Assembly: GCA_017652125.1 (NCBI GenBank)
Contig: JAGCBO010000058.1
Location: 1,409 to 65,408 of the forward strand
Source: Clostridia bacterium
GTDB taxonomy: Bacteria; Bacillota; Clostridia; Christensenellales; Aristaeellaceae
DNA: 64,000 nt
Direction: 5' to 3'
Every line of letters begins with the position of its first letter. Position 1 is the stretch's first letter. The translations under genes and the position numbers were made by a program. Below, piece after piece: positions 28,499 through 45,204 of the stretch. The notes under the pieces were generated by a model. That model had not been told where the DNA came from. It made no database searches and saw only the letters and a program-made list of their open reading frames with translations.

Positions 28499-29488
28499 TT
28501 ATTCTTTCGTTGTGCCGCCATAAGCATATTTGACCGGCAGGCATATCAGGGATGGCACATTGGAAAAATCCCTGGTAAGCACCGTGTTTACACAGGTCTC
28601 AGCGATTTCCCGGACAGGCTGTACAATGGTTGAAACAATCATTTCCTGTTCGCCGAACATCCGGCTTCCGTCAAATCCGATTACCTGTACATCTTCCGGC
28701 ACGCGGACGTTCATCTTCCGCAGGATGCGGATGATTTTCCAGGCAAGGGAATCCGTACCGACAAAAAGACCGTCGAGGGACATCCTGCCGTGTTCCAGAT
28801 GACGGGTCAGGAATTCCTCGAATTTTTCAAAGGGCTCGCTGTCTTCCAGGCATATCACTTCAAAAGGGAGCCCCATCTCCACACAGGCGCTGACAAAACC
28901 GTCCCTCCGTTTGCTGGGCTCGTTGGTAATTGCTGATCCGGTCCGCATGAACGCCACATTCGTGCAACCGAGTTCTTTCAGTTTCCGGGCGGCAAGATAT
29001 CCTCCGCCGAAGTTGTCCGACGACACGCACGGAACCGAACTGGAAAAGAACCGGTCGATGGTGACAAAAGGAATTCCCTCCGGAATGACCAGACTGGGAT
29101 GATAGGTAAGGGCAATAATCCCATCCACCCGGTTGTGCTGGGCAAGCTGGATAAATTCCGGCTCCCGGTCCCTGTCATATTCGGTGAAGCAGAGCATCAT
29201 TTTGTAATTATGCTTTTCCAGTGCAATGTTGATATGGTATACCAGCATGCTGAAAAAAGGATTAATTGTATTTGGAATGATGACCGCGACGGTATTTGTG
29301 CGATCCGTACGCAGTGCCCGGCCGCTGGGGTTATACCGGTAGCCCAGCTTCCGGATTGCTTCGTTTACCTTTTCCCTGAACTCTTTCCCGACCGGCTCCC
29401 CGTTGACTACACGGGAAACGGTACCCAGTGCGACACCAGCTTCACGGGCTACATCAGCCATCGTAGGGCTTTTGTTTTCTTTTGGCAT
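28499..29488 (-). CDS. LacI-family transcriptional repressor (ScrR-like)
   Basis: TMADVAREAGVALGTVSRVVN HTH, VPEDVQVIGFDG, TIVQP. Confidence 0.93.
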   Translation of the reverse strand: MPKENKSPTMADVAREAGVALGTVSRVVNGEPVGKEFREKVNEAIRKLGYRYNPSGRALRTDRTNTVAVIIPNTINPFFSMLVYHINIALEKHNYKMMLCFTEYDRDREPEFIQLAQHNRVDGIIALTYHPSLVIPEGIPFVTIDRFFSSSVPCVSSDNFGGGYLAARKLKELGCTNVAFMRTGSAITNEPSKRRDGFVSACVEMGLPFEVICLEDSEPFEKFEEFLTRHLEHGRMSLDGLFVGTDSLAWKIIRILRKMNVRVPEDVQVIGFDGSRMFGEQEMIVSTIVQPVREIAETCVNTVLTRDFSNVPSLICLPVKYAYGGTTKE

Positions 29489-29521
29489 ATCGTTCACCTC
29501 TGCGTTGCCTTTTCATGAATT

Positions 29522-29550
29522 ATTATAATCGTTTCATGAAATAAAGTCAA
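29522..29550 (-). promoter_or_regulatory. Promoter of the LacI regulator, with overlapping LacI-type operator
   Basis: TTGACT-17 bp-TATAAT; spacer contains ATGAAACGATTAT. Confidence 0.7.
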
Positions 29551-29630
29551 TCAGAATTGTTTGTAAATTAAAAAGTTAGTATATTGGAAAAGCATTGGAA
29601 AAGCATAACAGTTTTTTCATTATTTACGGG

Positions 29631-29686
29631 TTGACATACATGAAAATCTATGATATTTTTGCTATAGATTCATATAACGTTTCATT
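29631..29686 (+). promoter_or_regulatory. Promoter of the ABC operon plus downstream LacI-type operator
   Basis: TTGACA-17 bp-TATTTT (TG-extended); ATATAACGTTTCAT at about 29672-29685. Confidence 0.6.
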
Positions 29687-29722
29687 CCATCTACCGGATC
29701 ATTTCAGACAGGAGGAATGCTT

Positions 29723-30649
29723 ATGACTTCAGCCGCTGTCCCGCGAAAGCCGCTTCGTAAGAATCTGGGCCGGCGATTTGCGGACCACTGGCAGCTGTAC
29801 GTGCTGTTGCTGATCCCGGTGATCATCACCATCGTGTACAAGTATGGTCCCATGTACGGTATCCAGATTGCTTTCCGTAATTACAATCCAGGCCTTGGCA
29901 TCACAGAAAGTCCCTGGGTGGGCTGGAAGTGGTTCGAACGCTTTTTCCGCGCTCCGAACTTCGACCGGATGCTGTGGAATACTGTCAAGCTGAGCGTTTT
30001 CGGTTTACTGTGGGGTTTCCCGGTGCCTATTATCCTGAGCCTGGTACTGAACCAGCTGCGGTTCAAACGGCTTAAGCGCACTACGCAGACCGTCATCTAC
30101 GCACCGCATTTCATTTCTACCATGGTTATCTGCGGTATGCTGCGCATCTTCCTGTCTCCCTCCGGCGGTCTGATTAACCTGATTGCCGGTACAAACATCG
30201 ATTTCCTGACGGAAGCAGGCGCGTTCCGCACCATTTACGTTGCAAGCGGAATCTGGCAGGAAGCCGGCTGGGGTACCATTATTTACCTGGCCACGCTGAG
30301 CAGCATCGACACTTCACTGTATGAAGCTGCCAAGGTAGACGGCGCCAGCGTGTTTCAACGCATCCTGCACATCGATATTCCCTGCCTTCTGCCCATGATC
30401 ATTCTGCAGCTTATCCTGAGCGCTTCCGGCATTATGAACGTCGGTTTTGAAAAAGCATATCTGCTCCAGACCGACCTGAACCGCGCGACCAGTGATATCA
30501 TCGCAATTTACGTGTATGAGCAGGGTATCGTCAGCGCCCGGTATGAACTGGGAACTGCCGTTGGCCTGTTCAATACGGCCATTAATATTGTGCTGCTTGT
30601 GATCGTCAACCGGATTGCAAAAAAATTCGGCGATGTCAACTTTGTGTAA
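29723..30649 (+). CDS. Oligosaccharide ABC permease (LplB-like)
   Basis: YGPMYGIQIAF, PHFIS, LYEAAKVDGA EAA loop. Confidence 0.93.
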   Translation: MTSAAVPRKPLRKNLGRRFADHWQLYVLLLIPVIITIVYKYGPMYGIQIAFRNYNPGLGITESPWVGWKWFERFFRAPNFDRMLWNTVKLSVFGLLWGFPVPIILSLVLNQLRFKRLKRTTQTVIYAPHFISTMVICGMLRIFLSPSGGLINLIAGTNIDFLTEAGAFRTIYVASGIWQEAGWGTIIYLATLSSIDTSLYEAAKVDGASVFQRILHIDIPCLLPMIILQLILSASGIMNVGFEKAYLLQTDLNRATSDIIAIYVYEQGIVSARYELGTAVGLFNTAINIVLLVIVNRIAKKFGDVNFV

Positions 30650-30668
30650 GAGGGGAGGGAAAAAAGAT

Positions 30669-31580
30669 ATGTCTGTCATTTCCAGAAGAAATCAGGGCAA
30701 GCTGGGTGGCTTCAGCGACCGTACCAGCGATATCATTCTGATCGTTTTTTCCCTGATTATCCTTTTAATTGTAGCATATCCGCTGTATTACGTGCTGATT
30801 GCATCCTTGTCCGATCCATATGATGTATATGCGGGCAAAACTTTCCTGCTGCCGAGCCAGTTTACATTGGAAGGCTACAAGGCGGTATTCGCCGAGCCCA
30901 ATATCGTGCGTGGCTATGGTAACAGCATCCTGTATACTGTATTGGGTACGATTTACTCCGTGGCTCTGATTTACCTGGTTGGTTATCCGCTGTCTGTGCC
31001 GACTTTGCCAGGTAAAAAGCTGATCAGTATCTTCTTCATTATCACCATGTACTTTGGCGGCGGCTTGATCCCTACCTACCTGATTGTGCAGAAAACAGGC
31101 ATCATGCAGACTTTCTGGGCTATGTTCCTGCCCGGAGGCGTAGCGGTCAGCAATGCGATCATTGCCCGAAACTACTTTGAAAACAGCATTCCCGGCGCAT
31201 TGAAAGAAGCGGCCAGCATCGACGGAGCTTCCCACTTCCGCATCTTCTTCTCCATGATCATTCCGCTGTCCATGCCCATTCTGTCCGTAATGGTGATTTT
31301 CTCCATGGTAGCCTACTGGAACGAATGGTTCACCGCCCTGATTTACATGACCAACGAGCAGGCTCCGCTGCCCCTGGTGCTGCGCAATATCCTGATCAAG
31401 TCCTCCGCATCGGCAAGCCAGGCCAGCATGATTTCCGGCGGTTACGCGGAACTGAACAAAATGACCGAAATGATCAAGTTCTCTTCCATCATTGTGGCAG
31501 CCGCTCCCATGCTGATCGCCTATCCCTTCGTGCAGAAGTACTTCGAAAAGGGACTCATGGCAGGCGCGGTCAAAGGTTAA
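30669..31580 (+). CDS. Oligosaccharide ABC permease (LplC/YtcP-like)
   Basis: MYFGGGLIPTY, EAASIDGA, YPFVQKYF..G.VKG. Confidence 0.93.
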   Translation: MSVISRRNQGKLGGFSDRTSDIILIVFSLIILLIVAYPLYYVLIASLSDPYDVYAGKTFLLPSQFTLEGYKAVFAEPNIVRGYGNSILYTVLGTIYSVALIYLVGYPLSVPTLPGKKLISIFFIITMYFGGGLIPTYLIVQKTGIMQTFWAMFLPGGVAVSNAIIARNYFENSIPGALKEAASIDGASHFRIFFSMIIPLSMPILSVMVIFSMVAYWNEWFTALIYMTNEQAPLPLVLRNILIKSSASASQASMISGGYAELNKMTEMIKFSSIIVAAAPMLIAYPFVQKYFEKGLMAGAVKG

Positions 31581-31652
31581 TGCTCCCAATCCTCTGTTTC
31601 TGAGCGCAGGGTTGCGCTTTACAATTACCAACATATAAAAAGGAGGTTTCCC

Positions 31653-33269
31653 ATGAAAAAGATCGTATCTCTGATTTTGGCTGTTATCATGCTGATGGCC
31701 CTGATACCAGCTGCCTCTGCTGAGCAGACCGAATTTAACATCCTGAGCGGCATTTCTGCTTTGTCCGGCGGCTATGACAACAATGAAGTGCTTAATGCCA
31801 TGCAGGAGCAAGTCGGCATTAAGATCACCTGGGACACCTGGTCTGACAGCCTGGGTGAGGTGGTTGGCACGCGTATCAGCGGCAACGCCGCCAGCAAGAC
31901 TCCAATCGATGCCTTCCAGGCCTGCGGTTTCAGCAACTTTGATCTGATGCGCTACGGCTCTGCCGGCACCTTCATTGATCTGACCCCCTACATCACCCCC
32001 GAAGTAATGCCGAACCTGGCCGGCATTCTGGACGCACATCCCGAAATCAGGGCCGCTATTACCATGAGCGACGGCAAAATCTACGGCCTCCCCGCAGGTG
32101 AGCAGATGGGTACCGCCGGTATCGGCCGCGAAAAGGATTATTCCATCTTCTCCGTGCCCCAGTTTGCCATGATCAACAAGGTATGGCTTGATGATCTGGG
32201 ACTGGCTATTCCCACCACCCTCGATGAACTGCACGACGTACTGGTGGCTTTCAAAGAGAACGACATGTCCGCAAAGATCTACGGCAATGACGCTGGTTCC
32301 ACCATTCCCATGAGCACCGGTTTCGACGAGTGGTGCTGGGGTCAGAACGTGTTCTATGCCGGCTTCGGCTTTACCAACTGGCCCAATGACGTTTGCATGG
32401 ACCTTACTGTAAATCAGGATGGCGTGGTCAACTTCGTTTCCGATGATGACAATTACCGCGCTGCTGTGACCTACTTCCATGACTGGTACGCTGATGGCCT
32501 GATGGATCTGGAAATGTTCTCCCAGGATACCAACCAGCTGATCGCCAAGTGCACCGGCGGCCGCGTGGGTGTTGCTACTTGGTGGGAAATCAACGAAATC
32601 ATGGGACCGCACGCTGCCGACTACGTGTATCTGCCCATCCTCAACGGTCCCGACGGAACCAGCAATGTCACCCTGCGCACAGGCGGCGCCATCAATGCCG
32701 GCCAGCTGTCCATCACCGCCCAGTGTCAGGATCCTGCCAAGCTGCTTTCCTTCTATGACCTGTGGTACATCGGTGAAAACGTAATGCAGCTGCAGTATGG
32801 TCCCATCGGTGTGTTCTTTACCGAGAAGAATGAAAAAGGCCAGTGGAAGTCCATCACCGACGAGGACGCCCGCGCCAAGTTTAACAAGTCCTCCGGCGAA
32901 CTCAAGAGTCAGAGCGAAGTGGCTGGCCCGAAACTGATTCTTTCCCAGTACTACAATGACGTCTGGGAAATGGAAGCCCGTGCTCAGGAACGCTTGGCTG
33001 ATACCTATGACTACTGGTTCACCTTCGTAAAGGATTTCAGCTTCTATCCCCAGGACTGCGTATTCACCGAAGCTGAACTGGATGATCTTGACTTCTACCG
33101 TGGTGATTTTGAAAGTGCCGTGAAAGAGCAGGAAGCTCTGTGGATCAAGAACGGTGGACCTACCGACGAAGAATGGGAAGCCTACAAGGCAACTCTGGAG
33201 CGCTGCGGCTTGAGCACTCTGCTGGATATCTATCAGACGGTGTACGACCGCTATGTTGCTGCCAAGTAA
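31653..33269 (+). CDS. Oligosaccharide ABC substrate-binding protein
   Basis: AAGGAGG RBS, signal peptide, DGKIYGLP, INKVWLDDLGL.PTTLDEL. Confidence 0.93.
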   Translation: MKKIVSLILAVIMLMALIPAASAEQTEFNILSGISALSGGYDNNEVLNAMQEQVGIKITWDTWSDSLGEVVGTRISGNAASKTPIDAFQACGFSNFDLMRYGSAGTFIDLTPYITPEVMPNLAGILDAHPEIRAAITMSDGKIYGLPAGEQMGTAGIGREKDYSIFSVPQFAMINKVWLDDLGLAIPTTLDELHDVLVAFKENDMSAKIYGNDAGSTIPMSTGFDEWCWGQNVFYAGFGFTNWPNDVCMDLTVNQDGVVNFVSDDDNYRAAVTYFHDWYADGLMDLEMFSQDTNQLIAKCTGGRVGVATWWEINEIMGPHAADYVYLPILNGPDGTSNVTLRTGGAINAGQLSITAQCQDPAKLLSFYDLWYIGENVMQLQYGPIGVFFTEKNEKGQWKSITDEDARAKFNKSSGELKSQSEVAGPKLILSQYYNDVWEMEARAQERLADTYDYWFTFVKDFSFYPQDCVFTEAELDDLDFYRGDFESAVKEQEALWIKNGGPTDEEWEAYKATLERCGLSTLLDIYQTVYDRYVAAK

Positions 33270-33299
33270 TCCCAACAGCAAGACTTGAAACGTAAAACG

Positions 33300-33330
33300 C
33301 CGGGAGCCGGAATACCGGCTCCCGGTTTTC
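33300..33330 (+). terminator. Stem-loop after the SBP gene
   Basis: ccgggagccgg-aata-ccggctcccgg-tttt. Confidence 0.75.
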
Positions 33331-33365
33331 CCTGTTGTTAAATTTGATTCCGGGAGGTTTTTCCT

Positions 33366-34847
33366 ATGAGCATTAACCCCATGCCCCTTGAACGGGTCAG
33401 AGAATATGAACGGGAAAGGGCGATCCGGCTGCCTGCGGACGAACGCTCCCTCTTTCACCTGACTCCGCTCGTCGGATGGATGAATGATCCCAACGGATTT
33501 TGCTTCTACAAGGGGCAATTTCATCTGTTTTATCAATATTATCCTTTTTCCCGCTCGTGGGGGCCTATGCACTGGGGTCATGCCGTAACAACGGATTTGC
33601 TTCACTGGACGTACATGCCCTGCGCGCTTGCGCCTGACACGGCAGCGGATGCTGGCGGCTGCTTCTCCGGCAGCGCCGTGCCTATGCCGGACGGCAGGCT
33701 TATGCTTTTCTACACGGGGGTGCAGCCTGCAGGAACTTTCCGCCGGGAGACTCAGACGCAGTGTATCGCCATCGGAGACGGCACCGATTTTGAGAAATCC
33801 ATGTTGAATCCTGTGATTCGCCACGCTCATCTGCCTGCAGGGTACAGTGCTTTTGATTTCCGGGATCCCAAGGCCTGGCGGGAAGCCGACGGTACATTCC
33901 GTATGGCAGTGGCCAACAGGCATGAGGAACGGCAGGGCGCGATTCTGCTGATGAAAAGCCGGGACGGTGTGGACTGGCAGTTCGCGGGTGAAATCGACGC
34001 AAGCTGCAGCGAGTACGGGCGCATGTGGGAATGTCCGGATTTTTTCAGACTGGACGGAACACAGGTCCTGCTGGTCAGCCCGCAGGAGATGCATGCCCGG
34101 GAGGAATTCCACGCTGGCTACGGCACCGTGGCGTTCCTGGGAGACTTTGACGAATTGGAATGCCGTTTTGAGCGCAGAAACATCCAGCCAGTGGACCACG
34201 GCCTGACCTTTTATGCGCCTCAGACTACACTGGCCCCGGACGGAAGGCGCATCATGATCGGCTGGATGGACAACTGGGAAACCTGCAAAGAAGCTCCGCG
34301 GCGCCATCCCTGGTATGGTCAGATGACTGTACCGCGGGAGCTCTTTATCCGCGACGGCCGCCTCTGCCAGCATCCTGTCCGGGAAATGGAATCCATTTGG
34401 CTGGACACGGTCCGTCATGAACGGATTACAGTCCAGGATTCCGTATCATTGGAGGGAGTGCGGGGCAGACTCATGGATATGACCGTTACCCTGTATCCAG
34501 ATGGTTCAGGCTGCCGGCGCTTTACCCTGCATGTGGCGGAAGACGGTTCCCGCTATGTCCAGATCCGCTGTGACCTCGCGCGGGGCGAACTCGTTTTCGA
34601 CCGCAGCCACGGCGGTTCCCACCGGGATATTGCGCATACCCGCCACGTCCCGGCAGAAGTACGGGACGGAAAACTGGTTCTGCGCCTGCTGATGGATAAG
34701 GAAAGTATTGAACTTTTCATCAACGACGGTGAACGGGTTGTAACCTCCCTGATTCCCACATCTCCGGAAGCGGATGGGATTACCTTCGCTGCCGATGCGG
34801 CGGTCACGCTGTCTGTTGAAGCCCATCATCTGAAATCTACTGTCTGA
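33366..34847 (+). CDS. GH32 beta-fructofuranosidase / sucrose-6-phosphate hydrolase
   Basis: WMNDPNG, HWGHA, FSGSA, FRDP, WECPD, FYAPQT. Confidence 0.95.
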   Translation: MSINPMPLERVREYERERAIRLPADERSLFHLTPLVGWMNDPNGFCFYKGQFHLFYQYYPFSRSWGPMHWGHAVTTDLLHWTYMPCALAPDTAADAGGCFSGSAVPMPDGRLMLFYTGVQPAGTFRRETQTQCIAIGDGTDFEKSMLNPVIRHAHLPAGYSAFDFRDPKAWREADGTFRMAVANRHEERQGAILLMKSRDGVDWQFAGEIDASCSEYGRMWECPDFFRLDGTQVLLVSPQEMHAREEFHAGYGTVAFLGDFDELECRFERRNIQPVDHGLTFYAPQTTLAPDGRRIMIGWMDNWETCKEAPRRHPWYGQMTVPRELFIRDGRLCQHPVREMESIWLDTVRHERITVQDSVSLEGVRGRLMDMTVTLYPDGSGCRRFTLHVAEDGSRYVQIRCDLARGELVFDRSHGGSHRDIAHTRHVPAEVRDGKLVLRLLMDKESIELFINDGERVVTSLIPTSPEADGITFAADAAVTLSVEAHHLKSTV

Positions 34848-35013: not shown

Positions 35014-35038
35014 TTCAAGTCCTGTTTCCCGCACACCA
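35014..35038 (+). other. tRNA 3'-end remnant (tRNA-Leu-like), candidate att site
   Basis: TTCAAGT-CCTGT-TTCCCGC-A-(CA)-CCA: T-loop, T-stem 3' strand, acceptor 3' strand and CCA; no 5' half is present. Confidence 0.65.
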
Positions 35039-36397
35039 GGGGGGGCCGTCATGGACGGCCCTTTTTTCGCGGGCGCGGCGAAACAGAACTCTCTGCCAGG
35101 GCAGGCCCCAGGCCAGCATGCCGGTCCACCCGGCTACGCAGGCCACTCCCACGCCGCCGATGCCCATGGTGGGAACCAGCAGCAGGGTCAGAATCACCCG
35201 GATGGAGATCTGCGTCAGGGATCCGAGCAGCGAGCTCTTCATGGCGCCCACTCCCCGGTAGTACCCCTGCAGTCCGTTGGAAAGATGGGGCAGCCAGTAA
35301 CAGAAACCGATGATATCGAAGTAATGGACTCCCAGGCTGATCATGACGTCCTCCGTCGTGAACAGGGACATGAGCGGACGGCGCAGGAGCAGAACCACCG
35401 CGCTGATACAGATTCCGGCCAGCAGCTCCAGCAGCATGCCCTTCCGGTAGCCCTCCTCCGTCCGGCCGTGATTGCCCGCGCCCTCATTCTGAGCGATGAA
35501 GGCGGTCATGGCGGAGGAGATGCTTCGCCCGGGCAGCAGGCCGATATCCTCGATTTTCCGTACGGCGCTGTAGGCGGCGGCCGCGGAAATGCCGAGGGTA
35601 TTGACGCTGCCCTGGATAATGATGTTTCCGATCGGCTGCGCGCACTGCTGCAGAGCGGTCAGGCTGCCGTAGGAAAGGGTTCTCCGGGCCAGTCTCCCGT
35701 TGATCCGCAGATGTTTCCAGGGAATACGCAGCTCGGGAACATTGCGGTTGACGTGCCGGATGCACAGGAGGGCGCTGATGCCCTGAGCCGCGGCGGTGGC
35801 CAGCGCCGCGCCGAGAACGCCCAGCCGGGCCCAGGCAACCAGCGCCAGGTCCAGCAGGATGTTGATCAGGCAGGAGACGATCAGAAACCGCACGGGAGTG
35901 CGGGCGTCCCCCACGCTGCGAAGCGCGGCGCCGTAGATATTGTAAAGGCAGGTGAAGGGCATCCCCAGGAAGATGATCCGCAGGTAGACGGATGCCTCAT
36001 CCAGCGCTTCCGGCTGTACGTTCATCAGCCGGAAAATCGCCGGAGCCAGGGGAAGGCCGGCCGCCATCACGATGGCGGCGAAGATCAGCCCCAGGCTGAG
36101 GGTGGTTGCCATCTCTTCCCTCAGCCGTTCCAGATCCCTGGCGCCGAAGAAATTGCCCATCAGCACGGAGGCGCCGATGCATACGCCGGATACTCCCAGG
36201 ATCAGAAGGTTCATGATCTGATCGCAGGTACCCACCGCGGCCAGGCTGGTGCTTCCGGCGAAACGGCCGATGACGATGGTGTCAACCATGTTGTAGGAAA
36301 GCTGAAACAGATTCCCGAGCATCAGCGGGATGGCGAATTGAATCAGCTGGTTCCGGATCCGGCCCTGGGTCAGATCGGTGGTATGACGGTGAGACAT
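35015..36397 (-). CDS. MATE-family efflux transporter
   Basis: DLTQG, YNMVDTIVIGRF, LRSVGDARTP, NILLD, QNEGA; about 12 TM helices. Confidence 0.93.
   Translation of the reverse strand: MSHRHTTDLTQGRIRNQLIQFAIPLMLGNLFQLSYNMVDTIVIGRFAGSTSLAAVGTCDQIMNLLILGVSGVCIGASVLMGNFFGARDLERLREEMATTLSLGLIFAAIVMAAGLPLAPAIFRLMNVQPEALDEASVYLRIIFLGMPFTCLYNIYGAALRSVGDARTPVRFLIVSCLINILLDLALVAWARLGVLGAALATAAAQGISALLCIRHVNRNVPELRIPWKHLRINGRLARRTLSYGSLTALQQCAQPIGNIIIQGSVNTLGISAAAAYSAVRKIEDIGLLPGRSISSAMTAFIAQNEGAGNHGRTEEGYRKGMLLELLAGICISAVVLLLRRPLMSLFTTEDVMISLGVHYFDIIGFCYWLPHLSNGLQGYYRGVGAMKSSLLGSLTQISIRVILTLLLVPTMGIGGVGVACVAGWTGMLAWGLPWQRVLFRRAREKRAVHDGPPWCAGNRT
35042..35067. repeat. Right copy of the 26-bp direct repeat
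   Basis: Identical to 27370-27395. Confidence 0.9.
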
Positions 36398-36433
36398 CTT
36401 TTCTCCTGTAATGCGTCGGAGGGTTCAGTCGGG

Positions 36434-39400
36434 TCAGTCGTAGTTCCGCCGGGGCAGTTCGATTCCGAATTCACGGGCGGTCTGCTCCAGAATATCCAGC
36501 GCGCGCTCAATCTGCTCCGGTTTATGCTCGCTGATGACGCAGAAACGAAGCCGGGCCTTGCCCTTGGGCACCGCCGGGTACATGGCCGGCGGTACGCTGA
36601 CCCCGCGCTTTTTCAGTTCGTTGGACAGAAGCCAGGCATCCTCGTCCTTGCCGACCAGCACGGGCAGCACGGCCGTCTCTCCCGCCAGGCAGATGTCCAG
36701 ATGGCGGCGCCGGGCGCTGTCTGCGAAGGAACGGATGGCGGTGCGCAGATGCTCCATGATTTCCGGGTGGGAACGCAGGGTCCGGATGGCGGCCAGCGAA
36801 CCCGCGGCCAGGGCGGGAGAAATGCCCACGGAGAAGACGAAGCCCGGCATGTTGTACCGCAGATAGTCGATCAGGCACTTTTTCCCGGCCAGATATCCGC
36901 CGCAGGTGCCCAGGCCCTTGGACAGCGTGCCGTATTTGATGTCGATGTCATTGCCGTCCAGGCCGAAATATTCATCCACGCCGCCGCCGGTTTTGCCGAT
37001 GACGCAGGCGCTGTGAGCTTCGTCCACCATCAGGAAACAGCCGTATTCCTTTTTGATCCGGACGAAGTCGGGAACCGGAGCGATGTCTCCGTCCATGCTG
37101 TAGGCGCCTTCGATGATGATCAGAACCTTTTCATAGAAGGCCCGCTGATTCTTCAGGATCGTTTCCAGAGCCTTCGGGTCGCTGTGGGGGAAGGGCCGGG
37201 AGGTCGCGTCGCTCAGTTTGCATCCCTGCTCGATGGAATTATGCGCCAGCGCGTCGTAGAGAATCAGATCCTTTTTGCCGCAGAAATTGCCGACGAAGGT
37301 GACGTTGGTGGAATGGCCGCCAACGCATACAATGGCATCCTCCGTGTGCTTCCAGTCGGCGATTTCGGCTTCCAGTTCCTTGTGGATCATCTTTTCGCCG
37401 GCCAGCAGGCGGCTTCCGCTGGCGCTGGTTCCGTATTTGTCGATCGCGGCCTTGGCGGCATCCTTGACCTCTTTCCGGCCGCTCATGCCGACATAGTTGT
37501 AGCTGCCGAATTCCAGAATCTCCCGGCCGTCCACAATTCCGGTGTCAAGCAGGGGGGATTCATGGGCGACAAAGTAGGGATTATCCCCTTTTCCGACCAG
37601 GGCGTTCTGCCGCTCGACGAAGTGCAGATATTCCGGCGTATCCTCAAAGCGGGTGATCGGCCGGACGGCAACCCGTTCCGCTGTCCGGCTTTCCGGCAGC
37701 GGCCCTTTCAGCAGCGCTTCAACGACCTGGGTCATTCCGTTGACCGTGGCGCACTGGCCGTACTCTTCGGCCGGAATGGTGATCCCCCATTCCTCTTCAG
37801 CCCGCAGAGCCATGGAGAGCACCTGCAGGCTGTCTCCCTGCAGATCGTCGATAAAGTGCGCGTTATCGTCGATTTCCCGTTCGGACAGCTCCAGCGCTTC
37901 CGCGTACAGCGCCCGGACCTTCTGCCGGATCTCATCGCTGACGGCGGCGGGGCTGTTCGTTCCCCGGACGGCGGCGACTTCGGCTCCGGCGCTGCGCTCA
38001 TGCAGATCCAGCTCCCGGTAGACCAGTTCCTTTTCGTCGTAGAGGCGTTTCAGTTCAATCCGTTTGACCTTGATCCCGCTGACGAGCGGCAGGGCGGTGG
38101 ATGTCACCAGCGCCCGGTCCAGCTGCGTATACAGGGGGAGCCGGCTGTTGGCGTCCGCGACCTGGGCGGCCAGGGTATCCAGGTAGGCCTGGTCGGTATA
38201 GTTTTCTCCGACGTTCATGACCAGCACGATGTCTTCGTTGCTGTCCCGGCGGTTCCTCCGGAAGCCGACCACACTGAGCTGCTCCACCCCTTTCAGCGAG
38301 GCGAAGGCATCCTCCATGTCGTCCGGATAGACGTTTTCCCCGGATTCATTGATGATGACATCCTTCAGACGGCCTTTGATATAGATCCGGCCGCTGTGGT
38401 CCATTTCGGCGATGTCTCCCGTGGGATACCATCCTCCGTCCAGCGTGTCGGGCGGAAGCAGGGAGCCGGAAACCAGGCGGCCGGAGTGGATGCCGGGCCC
38501 GCGAACCTGCAGCTCGCCGCCGCGGCTGTTTTCGCCTGACGGGGCGATCCGGTATTCCGCGGTGCCCAGGGCGGTTCCCACAGAGCCGTTCAGCCGGTAG
38601 TTCAGGCTCATGGCGTTTTCAAATCCGTTGATGGCGGTTTCGGTCATGCCGTAGCCCACGACGGTATAATATCCCAGTGAATTCAGCACTTTCAGGGTTT
38701 CCGCCGGGGCGTGGCTTCCGCCGAGAATCAGCACCTGCAGCTCCGTCCCCAGCAGGTTCTGATTGACTTTGGCAAAAACCTTTTTTTCCGCCCAGTTCAG
38801 CCCCGGGCCGGGAGCGATGCGCTGCAGTGCAAGACTCAGGGCGCTCATCAGGCGGAACTGGGTCTGCCTGCCGGCGGATTCCTTTTTCAGGCTCCGCTGC
38901 AGGGATTTGACCAGGCTGTTTCCGACCAGCGGCACGACCACGGTCATATGGGGCGGGAAGCGGCGGCATACCTTCTGGATGGATGAAGGGGTCCGGTCCG
39001 GAAGATAGACGCAGCTCATTCCCATAAAATGAGCCCAGATCACGCAGGCCATGAAGCCGAGCACGTGATGGAAGGGCAGGAAGCAAAGCATCCGGCGGCC
39101 GGTATTGTCTGAGCCGATGATCCTCGTGTTATTCCGGTGCACGGCGACGGATTTCAGCGCCTGCTCGCAGACCGCTTCGCCGCTGTAGGCAAAAATCCGG
39201 CTGCGGCCGGTGGTTCCGCTGGTGCACATGGCGACGTATTCACCCCAGACGGGAGTGAAACCGATAATCCTGGGGGCTTCCGTCACGGTTTTGTAGTCGA
39301 TCTGGCGCACGTTGCCGGCCAGCGCCCGCGGCTTTCGGGTGATGATGACCCGGCAGCCGGCCTCGTCCAGCAGACCCTGCAGCTGCCCGTCCTGCGCAGC

Positions 39401-39703
39401 CGCGTCCAGCAGCAGAGCGTTATGTCCGGAACGCATGACGCCCCAGAACAGGGAGGGCCATTCATAGCACGTATCCACGGCAATGGCAATCCAGCCGCCG
39501 TCGGGCGCCTGCGAATTCAGACAGGCGGCATAATCGTCGGCCCGCCGGGCCATTTCCGCGTAGGAACGGCTCATTTCCTGATCTCCGTTCAGCCACAGGG
39601 CGGCGGGCAGTTCACCGTAATCGCGGAGAACGGAGAACAGTTCTTCCAGTGTTTTGTTGGCTTCCAGACGGGCGCTGACGCTCAGGGCGTCCATGTTCCT
39701 CAT
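36434..39703 (-). CDS. Trifunctional fusion: acyl-adenylating (AMP-binding) domain - acyl carrier protein - PLP-dependent alpha-oxoamine synthase (AONS/SPT family)
   Basis: TSGTTG, GYGMTE, TGD, GRLKDVII, GENVYP; ACP DDLQGDSL; FGSYNYVG, HNS, DEAH, GTLSKGLG; AAGGAGG RBS before ATG at 39703. Confidence 0.9.
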   Translation of the reverse strand: MRNMDALSVSARLEANKTLEELFSVLRDYGELPAALWLNGDQEMSRSYAEMARRADDYAACLNSQAPDGGWIAIAVDTCYEWPSLFWGVMRSGHNALLLDAAAQDGQLQGLLDEAGCRVIITRKPRALAGNVRQIDYKTVTEAPRIIGFTPVWGEYVAMCTSGTTGRSRIFAYSGEAVCEQALKSVAVHRNNTRIIGSDNTGRRMLCFLPFHHVLGFMACVIWAHFMGMSCVYLPDRTPSSIQKVCRRFPPHMTVVVPLVGNSLVKSLQRSLKKESAGRQTQFRLMSALSLALQRIAPGPGLNWAEKKVFAKVNQNLLGTELQVLILGGSHAPAETLKVLNSLGYYTVVGYGMTETAINGFENAMSLNYRLNGSVGTALGTAEYRIAPSGENSRGGELQVRGPGIHSGRLVSGSLLPPDTLDGGWYPTGDIAEMDHSGRIYIKGRLKDVIINESGENVYPDDMEDAFASLKGVEQLSVVGFRRNRRDSNEDIVLVMNVGENYTDQAYLDTLAAQVADANSRLPLYTQLDRALVTSTALPLVSGIKVKRIELKRLYDEKELVYRELDLHERSAGAEVAAVRGTNSPAAVSDEIRQKVRALYAEALELSEREIDDNAHFIDDLQGDSLQVLSMALRAEEEWGITIPAEEYGQCATVNGMTQVVEALLKGPLPESRTAERVAVRPITRFEDTPEYLHFVERQNALVGKGDNPYFVAHESPLLDTGIVDGREILEFGSYNYVGMSGRKEVKDAAKAAIDKYGTSASGSRLLAGEKMIHKELEAEIADWKHTEDAIVCVGGHSTNVTFVGNFCGKKDLILYDALAHNSIEQGCKLSDATSRPFPHSDPKALETILKNQRAFYEKVLIIIEGAYSMDGDIAPVPDFVRIKKEYGCFLMVDEAHSACVIGKTGGGVDEYFGLDGNDIDIKYGTLSKGLGTCGGYLAGKKCLIDYLRYNMPGFVFSVGISPALAAGSLAAIRTLRSHPEIMEHLRTAIRSFADSARRRHLDICLAGETAVLPVLVGKDEDAWLLSNELKKRGVSVPPAMYPAVPKGKARLRFCVISEHKPEQIERALDILEQTAREFGIELPRRNYD

Positions 39704-39798
39704 TGAGGCCTCCTTCCTTTGTGCGAACCCGGCCGGAAGAAATAAGAAAAATAATAATAACGGATAAATGACCCACCGGCCGGCAGGCACATCAATAC

Positions 39799-42941: not shown

Positions 42942-43175
42942 AGTTTACTCCTCCTTTTATTTCGGGCTTTCAGTTTTCAGCCGCCGGTATTTTACAGCTG
43001 ATTGGCATTTTTTGCAATCCTGCCCTGCTGCCTGAACCGCGAAAAGAACCGGACCGCCTTTTTCCGGGGGAATCGTTTTTTTATGCAATTCCATCGTTTC
43101 TTCCTCTTGCGTTCCCTGCCGAAAAGTGCTATAACTTCCGCGCGGTTCAGGAAACCGCCTGAAAGGATTTGTACC

Positions 43176-44585
43176 ATGGCTCGTACGCTTACCCGGGATC
43201 TGACGGTGGGGAAACCCCTGAAGCTTGTTCTGACCTTTGCCGCGCCGCTTCTGTTCGGCGTTCTTTTTCAGCAGTTCTATTCCTTTGTGGATACCGCGAT
43301 CGTCGGCCGGTATCTGGGAGCGGACAAGCTGGCGGCTGTCGGAGCGACGGGCTCTGTGAACTTTCTGGTGATCGGTTTGTGCCTGGGGCTCTGCTCCGGC
43401 TTTGCCATTCCCGTGGCCCAGGCTTTCGGCGCGCGGGATGAGAGCGATGTGCGGCGGAACGTCTGGCACGCGGGGGTTCTCAGCGCGGTTCTGTCCCTGG
43501 TGTTCGCTGCGGCGGCGGTTCTTCTGTGCAAGCCGCTGCTGCGCCTGATGAATACGCCGGAGGAGATTCTGGAGGATTCCGCCGCTTACATCCGCATTAT
43601 CTTTGCGGCCATTCCCTGCTGCGTGCTGTACAACATGGCCAGCGGTATTCTCCGGTCCCTGGGGGACAGCCGGACGCCGGTGCTCTTCCTGATCATGGCC
43701 TCCCTGATCAATATCGTGCTGGATCTGTTCCTGATCCTGGTGGTAAAGATGGATGTGGCGGGAGCCGCGGTGGCGACCGCGGTCAGCCAGCTGCTGGCGG
43801 GAATCGGTTGCCTGATCGTGATGATCCGGCGCTTTCCGATTCTGCGGATGAAGCGGGAAGACCGGCAGTTTTCCCTGCCGGTGGCGAAAAAAATGCTGAC
43901 GATCGGCCTGCCGATGGGACTGCAGTTCTCCATTACGGCGATCGGCTCCGTGGTGGTTCAGTGGTCTGTCAACGGCCTGGGTGTGAACGCCGTCGCGGCG
44001 GTCAGCGCCGCCGGAAAGCTCAGCGCTTTCTTTGCCTGCGTGTTTGACGCGCTTTCCTCCACCATGGCGACCTTTGCGGGCCAGAATATCGGCGCCCGGA
44101 AGCTGGATCGGGTTCATGAGGGGCTGAAGGCGGCTTCTCTGGTGGGTGTTCTGTACTGTATCGGAGCGTTCGCGGTGGTGCTGCTGTTCACCCGTCCGCT
44201 GCTGAGCCTGTTTATTGATACGGCCGCGGCAAAAGAAGTAGCGGACATGGGAGTCCGCTACCTGACCATTAACGCAGCCTTTTATATTCCGCTTTTGTTT
44301 GTGAATATTGTCCGCCTGTCGATCCAGGGCATGGGCTTTACGCGGGTTGCCATGTTTGCCGGGCTGTTTGAGATGATTGCCCGTACGGCCGTCGCGCTGT
44401 TCCTGGTGCCTGTTCTGGGCTTTACCGGAGCCTGCCTGGCCAATCCGGCCGCCTGGATTGCCGCGGATCTTTTCCTGTTCCCCTGCTATTTCCGCACCAT
44501 GCGGACGCTGCGGATGAGGCTCATGCCGGACACCCATGAATACCGGGAGCCGGCAAAGCTTCATCTGCTGCGGCGCAGCGCCTGA
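43176..44585 (+). CDS. MATE-family efflux transporter
   Basis: DLTVG, YSFVDTAIVGR, LRSLGDSRTP, QNIGA. Confidence 0.93.
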   Translation: MARTLTRDLTVGKPLKLVLTFAAPLLFGVLFQQFYSFVDTAIVGRYLGADKLAAVGATGSVNFLVIGLCLGLCSGFAIPVAQAFGARDESDVRRNVWHAGVLSAVLSLVFAAAAVLLCKPLLRLMNTPEEILEDSAAYIRIIFAAIPCCVLYNMASGILRSLGDSRTPVLFLIMASLINIVLDLFLILVVKMDVAGAAVATAVSQLLAGIGCLIVMIRRFPILRMKREDRQFSLPVAKKMLTIGLPMGLQFSITAIGSVVVQWSVNGLGVNAVAAVSAAGKLSAFFACVFDALSSTMATFAGQNIGARKLDRVHEGLKAASLVGVLYCIGAFAVVLLFTRPLLSLFIDTAAAKEVADMGVRYLTINAAFYIPLLFVNIVRLSIQGMGFTRVAMFAGLFEMIARTAVALFLVPVLGFTGACLANPAAWIAADLFLFPCYFRTMRTLRMRLMPDTHEYREPAKLHLLRRSA

Positions 44586-44879
44586 TCAGCGTCCCATCCC
44601 GACGAAGGAGGTAGCGATCCATCCGGTAAGCGTCACGCCGTTTTTCTCGTAGCGGATTTGCACAAAATGACGATCGGAAGCCGGGTCGTATTCCACGCTG
44701 CCGAATGTGTCCACGATCGTACCGTTGACCAGGGAGTCCTGCCGGTTATGTGCGGCGGTAGTCGGCGTGCTGCGAACCTGCGCTTTATCGTTGGTGCCAG
44801 TTTTGATCGGCCGGCGAACTCCGCCGGAAACCTCATCCATCAGGCTGTCATCCAGTTCCACCATTTTCATTTCATCCAT
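44586..44879 (-). CDS. Small protein: double-glycine leader + SH3b-like domain
   Basis: GGAGG RBS; ELDDSLMDEVSGG leader; VRSTP..L.NG..V..V.I.Y..NG..GWI..FV. Confidence 0.75.
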   Translation of the reverse strand: MDEMKMVELDDSLMDEVSGGVRRPIKTGTNDKAQVRSTPTTAAHNRQDSLVNGTIVDTFGSVEYDPASDRHFVQIRYEKNGVTLTGWIATSFVGMGR

Positions 44880-45204
44880 TTCTGTTCCCTCCTGTATTCT
44901 TATCATTCACTCTGCTTCCAGCCCCTGCCGTGCAGTCTCATCCTTTGATACGCACGAAGCGGAAGGGATGGCAGGGCTTTTTGAAAAATCCGCGTAGAAA
45001 TTTTTTTTGCAAACGTAAATGCAAGGTCGGCGCTGTGTTTACTGATCCGGCTGATGCGGGCTTCCGGCCGTTCCTACCGGACCGCCTGCCGGGATTTCCG
45101 GTCCGGGCAGGCAGTTTTATATTGTCATGAAAAAATCAATATGGTATGATTTACAGGAATACAGCCGCCCTGTGATTGATTCTCTTCCGGGAGGAACAGC
45201 TGAA

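Follow-up and report, generated by a model that had tools for sequence, protein, structure and literature searches.

A single-chain ligase, acyl carrier and alpha-oxoamine synthase in a Christensenellales bacterium: a candidate self-loading serine palmitoyltransferase

The fusion gene and its modules

We analyzed a 64,000-nucleotide stretch of contig JAGCBO010000058.1 from a Clostridia bacterium (Christensenellales; Aristaeellaceae), the whole of which we call the window. Its minus strand carries a gene, P0001, whose product joins an acyl ligase, an acyl carrier and a pyridoxal 5'-phosphate (PLP)-dependent alpha-oxoamine synthase on one chain. We propose that this protein is probably a self-loading serine palmitoyltransferase (SPT), which would convert a fatty acid and serine to 3-ketosphinganine, to be reduced to sphinganine by a KdsR-like reductase. 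The gene, its modules and its downstream neighbor are listed here by window position.

36434..39703, minus strand: fusion gene P0001, 1089 amino acids; ligase, acyl carrier and PLP alpha-oxoamine synthase (open reading frame, Pfam, homologues)
38024..39703, minus strand: ANL adenylation domain, residues 1-560; acyl-CoA-ligase-like, not fatty acyl-AMP ligase (FAAL)-like; predicted acyl-ACP synthetase (Pfam, PDB sequence matches, predicted model)
37724..37924, minus strand: carrier domain, residues 594-660 (PF00550, 39.7 bits, cut-off 20.8)
37829-37831, minus strand: phosphopantetheine site, S625
36437..37660, minus strand: alpha-oxoamine synthase domain, residues 682-1089; sister to the SgaB/RkpG clade linked to polyketide synthases (PKS) and FAALs
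36917-36919, within the synthase domain: PLP lysine K929; further residues considered are H821, D894, H897, S764, V959 and R1053
39709..39715, minus strand: ribosome-binding site AAGGAGG, which backs the start codon ATG at 39703 (GGAGG 5 nt upstream of the ATG)
35015..36397, minus strand: MATE-family transporter gene, 460 amino acids (TIGR00797, 196.6 bits, cut-off 147.4); judged to lie outside the pathway

The reading frame runs from the ATG at 39703 to a stop ending at 36434, with zero internal stops. Pfam places AMP-binding at residues 33-408 (E 1e-36), AMP-binding_C_3 at 448-536, PP-binding at 594-660 (E 6e-10) and Aminotran_1_2 at 728-1071 (E 6e-44), confirming the three-module architecture that an initial annotation had read from the letters of this DNA. 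Every motif quoted there is also in place: TSGTTG (161-166), GYGMTE (350-355), TGD (428-430), GRLKD (444-448) and K545 in the ligase; DLQGDSL, with S625, in the carrier; and GSYNY (733-737), HNS (821-823), DEAH (894-897) and GTLSK, with K929, in the synthase. The fusion is real and not an assembly artefact, since 118 of the 120 best homologues, which are 55-97% identical, have the three Pfam domains together on a single chain. Across 22 aligned homologues, with identity down to 38%, the key residues are invariant or almost so; S625, K929, D894, R765, R1053, D430 and K545 are the same in all 22. The synthase domain is the sole alpha-oxoamine synthase detected in the source genome (G000, 84% complete), which also encodes two phosphopantetheinyl transferases (PPTases). 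Searches of the window for tRNAs and Rfam families gave zero matches, and promoter and terminator scans gave results near chance.

The predicted model of the ligase has a confident ANL fold (pLDDT 88.9). Its PDB sequence matches are FadD13, MatB and MenE, and the nearest solved folds are these three and aryl-acid ligases, at 15-23% identity. Fold searches with the whole model and with the ligase domain confirm the families and fix neither the acid nor the acceptor; because neither fold nor sequence searches name a substrate, we infer the acid from context. With the FAAL-type ligase at the SPT locus of E. coli (NF006624) the domain aligns over 70 residues only, short matches to two FAAL-type ligases are all that we found, and no FAAL model is among the 25 NCBIfam models shown of 105. 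Elsewhere in G000, many carrier domains lie on contigs C164, C47, C218, C181, C160, C14, C45, C31 and C168, in frames of up to 4022 amino acids that are likely non-ribosomal peptide synthetase genes; four relatives have 3-4 carrier matches each.

Relatives and active site of the condensing domain

In a 59-row maximum-likelihood tree, midpoint-rooted and with few reference rows, the fusion family forms one clade (support 97/99), separate from BioF, KBL, ALAS and 11 canonical SPT rows. Its sister group consists of PKS/FAAL-linked synthases, including P0271 and the RkpG-like P0272 (joint support 96/96). A phylogeny had been proposed in the initial annotation as the way to place this domain, and its outcome is a position outside BioF, beside the SgaB-type clade. 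Identities follow the same pattern: the synthase domain is 44.8% identical to P0271, which is encoded behind a type I PKS, as against 31-35% to Bacteroidota and proteobacterial SPTs and 28-33% to BioF. Among plasmid sequences the best matches, at 42-48%, either are type I PKS proteins or come from genes located behind PKS genes, in loci of the capsule type. One Bacillus plasmid locus (L041:9665-11149) pairs a sister-clade synthase with a glycosyltransferase, a methyltransferase, a ketoacyl synthase and a PPTase.

P0271 agrees motif by motif with the printed sequence of PfSgaB, a similarity judged by eye and not a computed identity. PfSgaB forms an aldimine with serine, yields 3-ketodihydrosphinganines and almost ignores alanine and glycine (PMC12134224). 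The fusion groups with SgaB and RkpG as a sister clade; no type I PKS was recognized among the window's open reading frames, and a PF00109 search of G000 gave no match.

The catalytic residues K929, H821, D894/H897 and R1053 align with those of SmSPT and KBL, and the predicted fold of the domain matches ThAOS, SPT and KBL. The domain is not a canonical SPT: it falls below all three NCBIfam SPT cut-offs (CFB, 285 against 640 bits; AlphaP, 222.6 against 670; BetaP, 269.5 against 500) and lies outside the SPT clade. It also stays below the models for KBL (285 against 460), ALAS (229.8 against 338.6) and CqsA (154.7 against 428).

The top NCBIfam model is TIGR00858, bioF, at 337.8 bits. This ranking is what speaks for a biotin-pathway fusion, in which a BioW-like ligase, a carrier and BioF would convert pimelate and alanine to 8-amino-7-oxononanoate. 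The score is below the model's cut-off of 426, however, and the SgaB relative is likewise topped by bioF, at 332.5 bits. Neither bioD nor bioB exceeded its cut-off in any of five genus genomes, four of them 93-99% complete, in which control models did match. With the tree position outside BioF, these results lead us to reject the biotin reading, which is almost certainly wrong.

Which amino acid would such an enzyme use? Position 764 corresponds to the Ser of SPT (SpSPT S102, ThAOS V79) and is Ser here. PMC11906848 gives this selectivity position as Ser in SPT and in E. coli BioF, Val in KBL and Thr in ALAS. V959, 30 residues past the PLP lysine, is the same as in PfSgaB; cysteate acyl-ACP transferases (SulA, capnine) have Lys there (PMC9304779). 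We rejected a capnine or cysteate synthase on this residue.

An unlikely but serious alternative is that the same chemistry and the same reductase act on a different small amino acid, either alanine or glycine, or on an unusual acid, and lead to 1-deoxy-type bases or some other amino-alcohol lipid. No residue that we tested parts serine from alanine, since BioF shares the Ser at position 764; moreover, the fusion family is a clade of its own, its ligase is distant from any solved fold, and no bCerS-like gene was found in the genus (see below). RedL-type relatives reportedly use glycine; our literature search found nothing on this. Against these points, the nearest characterized relative rejects alanine and glycine, ALAS and KBL have Thr and Val where P0001 has Ser, and the partner reductase family described next also serves canonical SPT-like genes.

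Reductase partner, distribution and gene neighborhood

The absence of an adjacent reductase, reported in the initial annotation, holds at this locus but not for the genome as a whole. G000 encodes a KdsR-like short-chain dehydrogenase/reductase (SDR), P0273 (C251:522-1349; L122:519-1349), on a different contig from the fusion, and in many relatives such a gene adjoins it. Neighbor clustering of 68 family loci found an SDR cluster in 27. Of 60 family loci, 25 have a P0273 homologue no more than 700 bp from the fusion; 44 of the 60 had 1.2 kb on both sides. P0273 is 59% identical to the fusion-adjacent SDR copies. For P0273 the best NCBIfam model is NF049977 (KdsR, 3-ketodihydrosphingosine reductase), whose cut-off is 400 bits and against which P0273 scores 217.6; three fusion-adjacent copies, scoring 180-320 bits, have the same top model. 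In each of five genomes the P0273-type SDR is the best NF049977 match (215-232 bits versus 97-114 for the next), and 51 of the 54 genus genomes encode it. A plasmid search with P0273 returned generic SDRs and no decisive orthologue.

The reductase-family link extends to a second type of synthase. In 301 genomes of the order, the SDR is present in 25 of the 31 with a fusion-type synthase, in 61 of the 84 with only an SPT-like gene, and in 29 of the 186 with neither; we attach no p-value to these counts, because related genomes are not independent samples. Genomes with the SDR have it adjacent to the fusion-type synthase in 7 of 25 cases and to the SPT-like gene in 39 of 61, so that, with the 25 of 60 fusion loci above, P0273-type genes are linked to SPT-type genes of both kinds. 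The SPT-like class is defined by our own E-value cut; six of its 84 members were placed by tree, all beside Bacteroidota SPTs, and two SPT-like genes scored 561 and 532 against an SPT cut-off of 640. Because the same SDR adjoins both synthase types, the fusion appears to occupy the reductase-side slot that SPT holds elsewhere.

Stand-alone SPT-like genes that group with Bacteroidota SPT occur in many genomes of the order (for example L029:842-2023, L030:8255-9418 and L168-L171, in G040, G029, G196, G258, G084 and G282). In the SPT-like-only genomes a bCerS-like gene is present in 65 of 84, besides the 39 of 61 with an adjacent KdsR-like SDR, and the canonical sphingolipid gene set is apparently complete in some Clostridia. 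For the acylation step we followed a GNAT protein encoded near the fusion in G110, which is homologous to YghO adjoining the E. coli SPT locus and 44-46% identical to Bacteroides proteins; we take it to be probably bCerS-like. This query matched in 143 of the 301 order genomes, and fusion-type genomes had a strong match in 19 of 31 and a weak one in 6 of 31. A diverged or unrelated acylase may serve the source genus.

The fusion is near-core and single-copy in the genus. A full fusion is present in 39 of the 54 genus genomes (66-100% identity), the synthase domain alone in 9 and a fragment in 2; the 4 with no match are 58-77% complete. Several assemblies from the genus consist of just one or two contigs. 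At the level of the order, the ligase domain accompanies the fusion-type synthase (E below 1e-120) in 29 of 31 genomes. An even draw of 300 class genomes gave only 2 matches, both from the source genome's own family, so the fusion is not a general clostridial trait. Among the best 80 of 591 confirmed stretches, the family occurs in records of Christensenellales, Candidatus Limiplasma, Oscillospiraceae, Mageeibacillus, Clostridium and Tissierellia, and in a few Bacteroidales, Treponema and Planctomycetota bins. Full fusions in bins with the latter three titles (L060, L064, L065, L081, L082) may reflect transfer or mis-binning. The synthase-only form is about 63% identical (L023, L024 and L025, in G020, G021 and G016), and no close ligase domain was found in those synthase-only genomes that were searched.

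The ligase-carrier module also occurs apart from the synthase. P0147 joins it to a condensation domain (39.9% identity), and at one syntenic site G320 and G182 carry the whole fusion, whereas G199, G305 and G055 carry only the ligase and carrier there and encode an SPT-like gene at another place in the genome; judged by these gene contexts, the module is mobile. Ligase-carrier didomain genes without a synthase include L153, L154, L155, L158-L160, P0155 and P0257. Some of them adjoin acyltransferase and MFS genes, and in P0155 and P0257 the chain closes with what look like the decayed remains of a synthase. DegV fatty-acid-binding genes lie at 7 of the 68 family loci. A search of G000 for fabF, fabH, fabD, fabK and fabZ gave no match, and a ketoacyl synthase was not found in G021 (97% complete) either; some genus members may depend on outside fatty acids. 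We rejected fatty-acid auxotrophy as a general reason for the fusion, as the fusion coexists with a ketoacyl synthase in G001, G002 and G269.

These contexts bear on a second alternative, in which the ligase and carrier are mainly a general scavenging module that supplies fatty acids for membrane lipids, and the synthase is a separable add-on drawing on other acyl pools. The didomain genes, one pair of them beside an acyltransferase and an MFS gene, the condensation-domain fusion in P0147, the synthase remnants, the 9 genus genomes that retain only the synthase, and the missing ketoacyl synthase matches in G000 and G021 are all of the kind it would predict. We nevertheless regard it as improbable: the fusion is whole in most genus genomes and in 29 of the 31 order genomes with this synthase type, G001, G002 and G269 combine FabF-type genes with the fusion, and the proposal would alter the flow of acyl groups more than the product.

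The MATE gene downstream was the transporter for which the initial annotation had suggested a role in export. Its co-orientation and its start 36 bp past the fusion stop are confirmed, with no terminator-like site in the gap. The adjacency is poorly conserved, however. The MATE gene adjoins the fusion at 3 of the first 20 loci; in at least 12 of the 20 a putative mnmG is the convergent neighbor. A MATE of at least 65% identity is present in 14 of 54 genus genomes and in 6 of the 39 with a full fusion, where it is adjacent in 3; the other 33 full fusions are in genomes without one. Only 1 of 60 wider family loci has any MATE match, and neighbor clustering of the 68 loci gave no MATE cluster reaching 3 loci. 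The MATE neighbor is incidental, not a conserved partner, and on this ground we rejected it as a member of the pathway.

A third alternative, that fusion and MATE form a CqsA-like cassette making and exporting an aminoketone signal or secondary metabolite, draws on this short same-strand gap and on a 71%-identical MATE directly upstream of the synthase-only gene in G021. With so few MATE genes beside or even in genomes with the fusion, a CqsA model far from its cut-off, and a single-copy, near-core gene, this alternative is very improbable; the fusion gene has the look of housekeeping lipid metabolism rather than of a secondary-metabolite cassette.

The upstream GH3 gene was dropped as a partner, being adjacent in 2 of 20 loci. 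The flanking open reading frames include no recognized bio gene, reductase or acyltransferase, in agreement with the initial annotation. Window positions 28499-34847 hold a LacI-like regulator, a sugar ABC transporter and a GH32 hydrolase, converging on the MATE gene; this segment has a lower GC content, of 50-55%, and a third-position GC of 0.64-0.68 versus 0.78, and is possibly acquired. A second MATE gene lies at 43002-44585 on the plus strand, followed at 44586-44906 on the minus strand by a 106-residue open reading frame with no Pfam match, whose start resembles a double-glycine leader.

The proposed pathway and known systems

The results are consistent with the following route. The ligase would activate a free long-chain fatty acid with ATP to the acyl-AMP, the acyl group would move onto the phosphopantetheine arm at S625 of the protein's own carrier, and the PLP domain would condense the acyl-carrier with serine, releasing CO2 and 3-ketosphinganine. 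The unlinked P0273 would then reduce 3-ketosphinganine to sphinganine. The long-chain acid, serine and the reductase activity are what we infer from this body of comparisons. After reduction the pathway could stop at the long-chain base, attach a head group, which is the case in P. fluorescens, or continue through some other acylase; barring an unrelated acylase, the genus would end up with a long-chain base, either free or modified by a head group, in place of a ceramide made by bCerS. The enzyme logic and the sphingoid product guessed at in the initial annotation thereby gain support from the tree position, the failure of the biotin reading and the KdsR-like reductase, with the product itself a prediction.

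Several observations weigh against this interpretation. On the side of the synthase, the fusion family is sister to the SgaB clade and not nested in it, only one characterized member was seen in that clade, S764 does not single out serine because E. coli BioF also has Ser, and an SPT-like Nostoc enzyme gave no ketosphinganine when tested (PMC8895605). The ligase does not fix a chain length, because its nearest folds include MenE, MatB and aryl-acid ligases. On the side of the reductase, P0273-type SDRs, at 215-232 bits, stay short of the NF049977 cut-off of 400, generic rhizobial SDRs are themselves 36-39% identical to P0273, the SDR is not adjacent to the fusion in the source genome, and G071 and G284 have the SDR with neither a fusion nor an SPT-like match. 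The synthase-only form occurs in 9 genus genomes, a single query for the bCerS-like GNAT matched 0 of 35 genomes of the genus, and the co-occurrence counts ignore kinship.

The nearest known counterparts are PfSgaB, from SgaABC of Pseudomonas fluorescens MYb115, which is the closest characterized condensing enzyme, and the RkpG-like synthases; their clade is sister to the fusion family. The fusion is linked to PfSgaB by about 45% identity to its close relative P0271 and by common pocket motifs. PfSgaB has been proven to act as an SPT, and its pathway, which includes an SDR, ends in free sphinganines (PMC12134224). SgaB, however, is a stand-alone protein that receives its substrate from an iterative PKS, whereas the synthase here is fused to a ligase and a carrier, and the SDR here is KdsR-like and about 30% identical to that of the Pseudomonas locus.

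The same three activities, leading from fatty acid to dedicated carrier to PLP enzyme, are known as AasR, AcpR and SPT in Caulobacter, E. coli BL21 and Sphingomonas (PMC9386255). There they are three proteins and not one chain, the E. coli ligase is FAAL-type, the SPTs fall in another clade, and the bacteria use bCerS and CerR; the likeness is likely convergent. In Bacteroides, SPT acts with KdsR (BT_0972), an SDR that reduces 3-ketosphinganine (PMC9278070). P0273 has KdsR as its best model but stays below that model's cut-off, and the genus differs further in the clade of its condensing enzyme and in the bCerS-like gene not found there. Clostridia also use an adenylation domain and a carrier for fatty-acyl conjugates in fatty-acid-amide pathways built from free-standing A, T and C domains, as PMC10871352 describes; these pathways make an amide bond by a condensation domain and not a decarboxylative C-C bond.

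The architecture itself is not new: its logic is known from AasR-AcpR-SPT, and its domain order was catalogued in 2013, as A-CP-PLP2 proteins of Microscilla, Blastopirellula and Synechococcus, with no known product (PMC3870968, Table 2). Six sister-clade proteins of the same length and order (P0157, P0173, P0188, P0206, P0219, P0228) have an AMP-dom_DIP2-like C-terminal model missing from the fusion family and align with it only from about residue 390; it is through these six that we set the three catalogued proteins apart. The domain order thus has a precedent in print; the ligase type and the host group were not found there. What is new is a non-FAAL ligase fused to an SgaB-sister synthase, its KdsR-like link and its host group. 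Our literature search, which left most subscription papers uncovered, turned up no work on the fusion or on sphingolipids from this order; the supplementary homologue table of PMC12134224 could list Bacillota.

By the account of PMC10191378, bacterial sphingolipids are confined for the most part to Bacteroidota and some Proteobacteria; a few Actinobacteria are predicted producers in work cited by PMC12134224. These lipids influence host immunity and lipid metabolism. If our reading is right, the producers would come to include a widespread order of Clostridia from gut and rumen, by a route that escapes SPT models because the top automatic model is bioF. A single polypeptide needing only a fatty acid, ATP and an amino acid would also be a CoA-free biocatalyst for long-chain aminoketones. 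More broadly, we hold it an evenly balanced proposition that Christensenellales-type Clostridia of gut, rumen and digester are a large and so far unrecognized group of sphingolipid producers with two interchangeable entry enzymes, a Bacteroidota-like SPT or the fusion, beside a KdsR-like reductase, and that the bCerS-less genus would make a free or head-group-bearing base from scavenged fatty acids.

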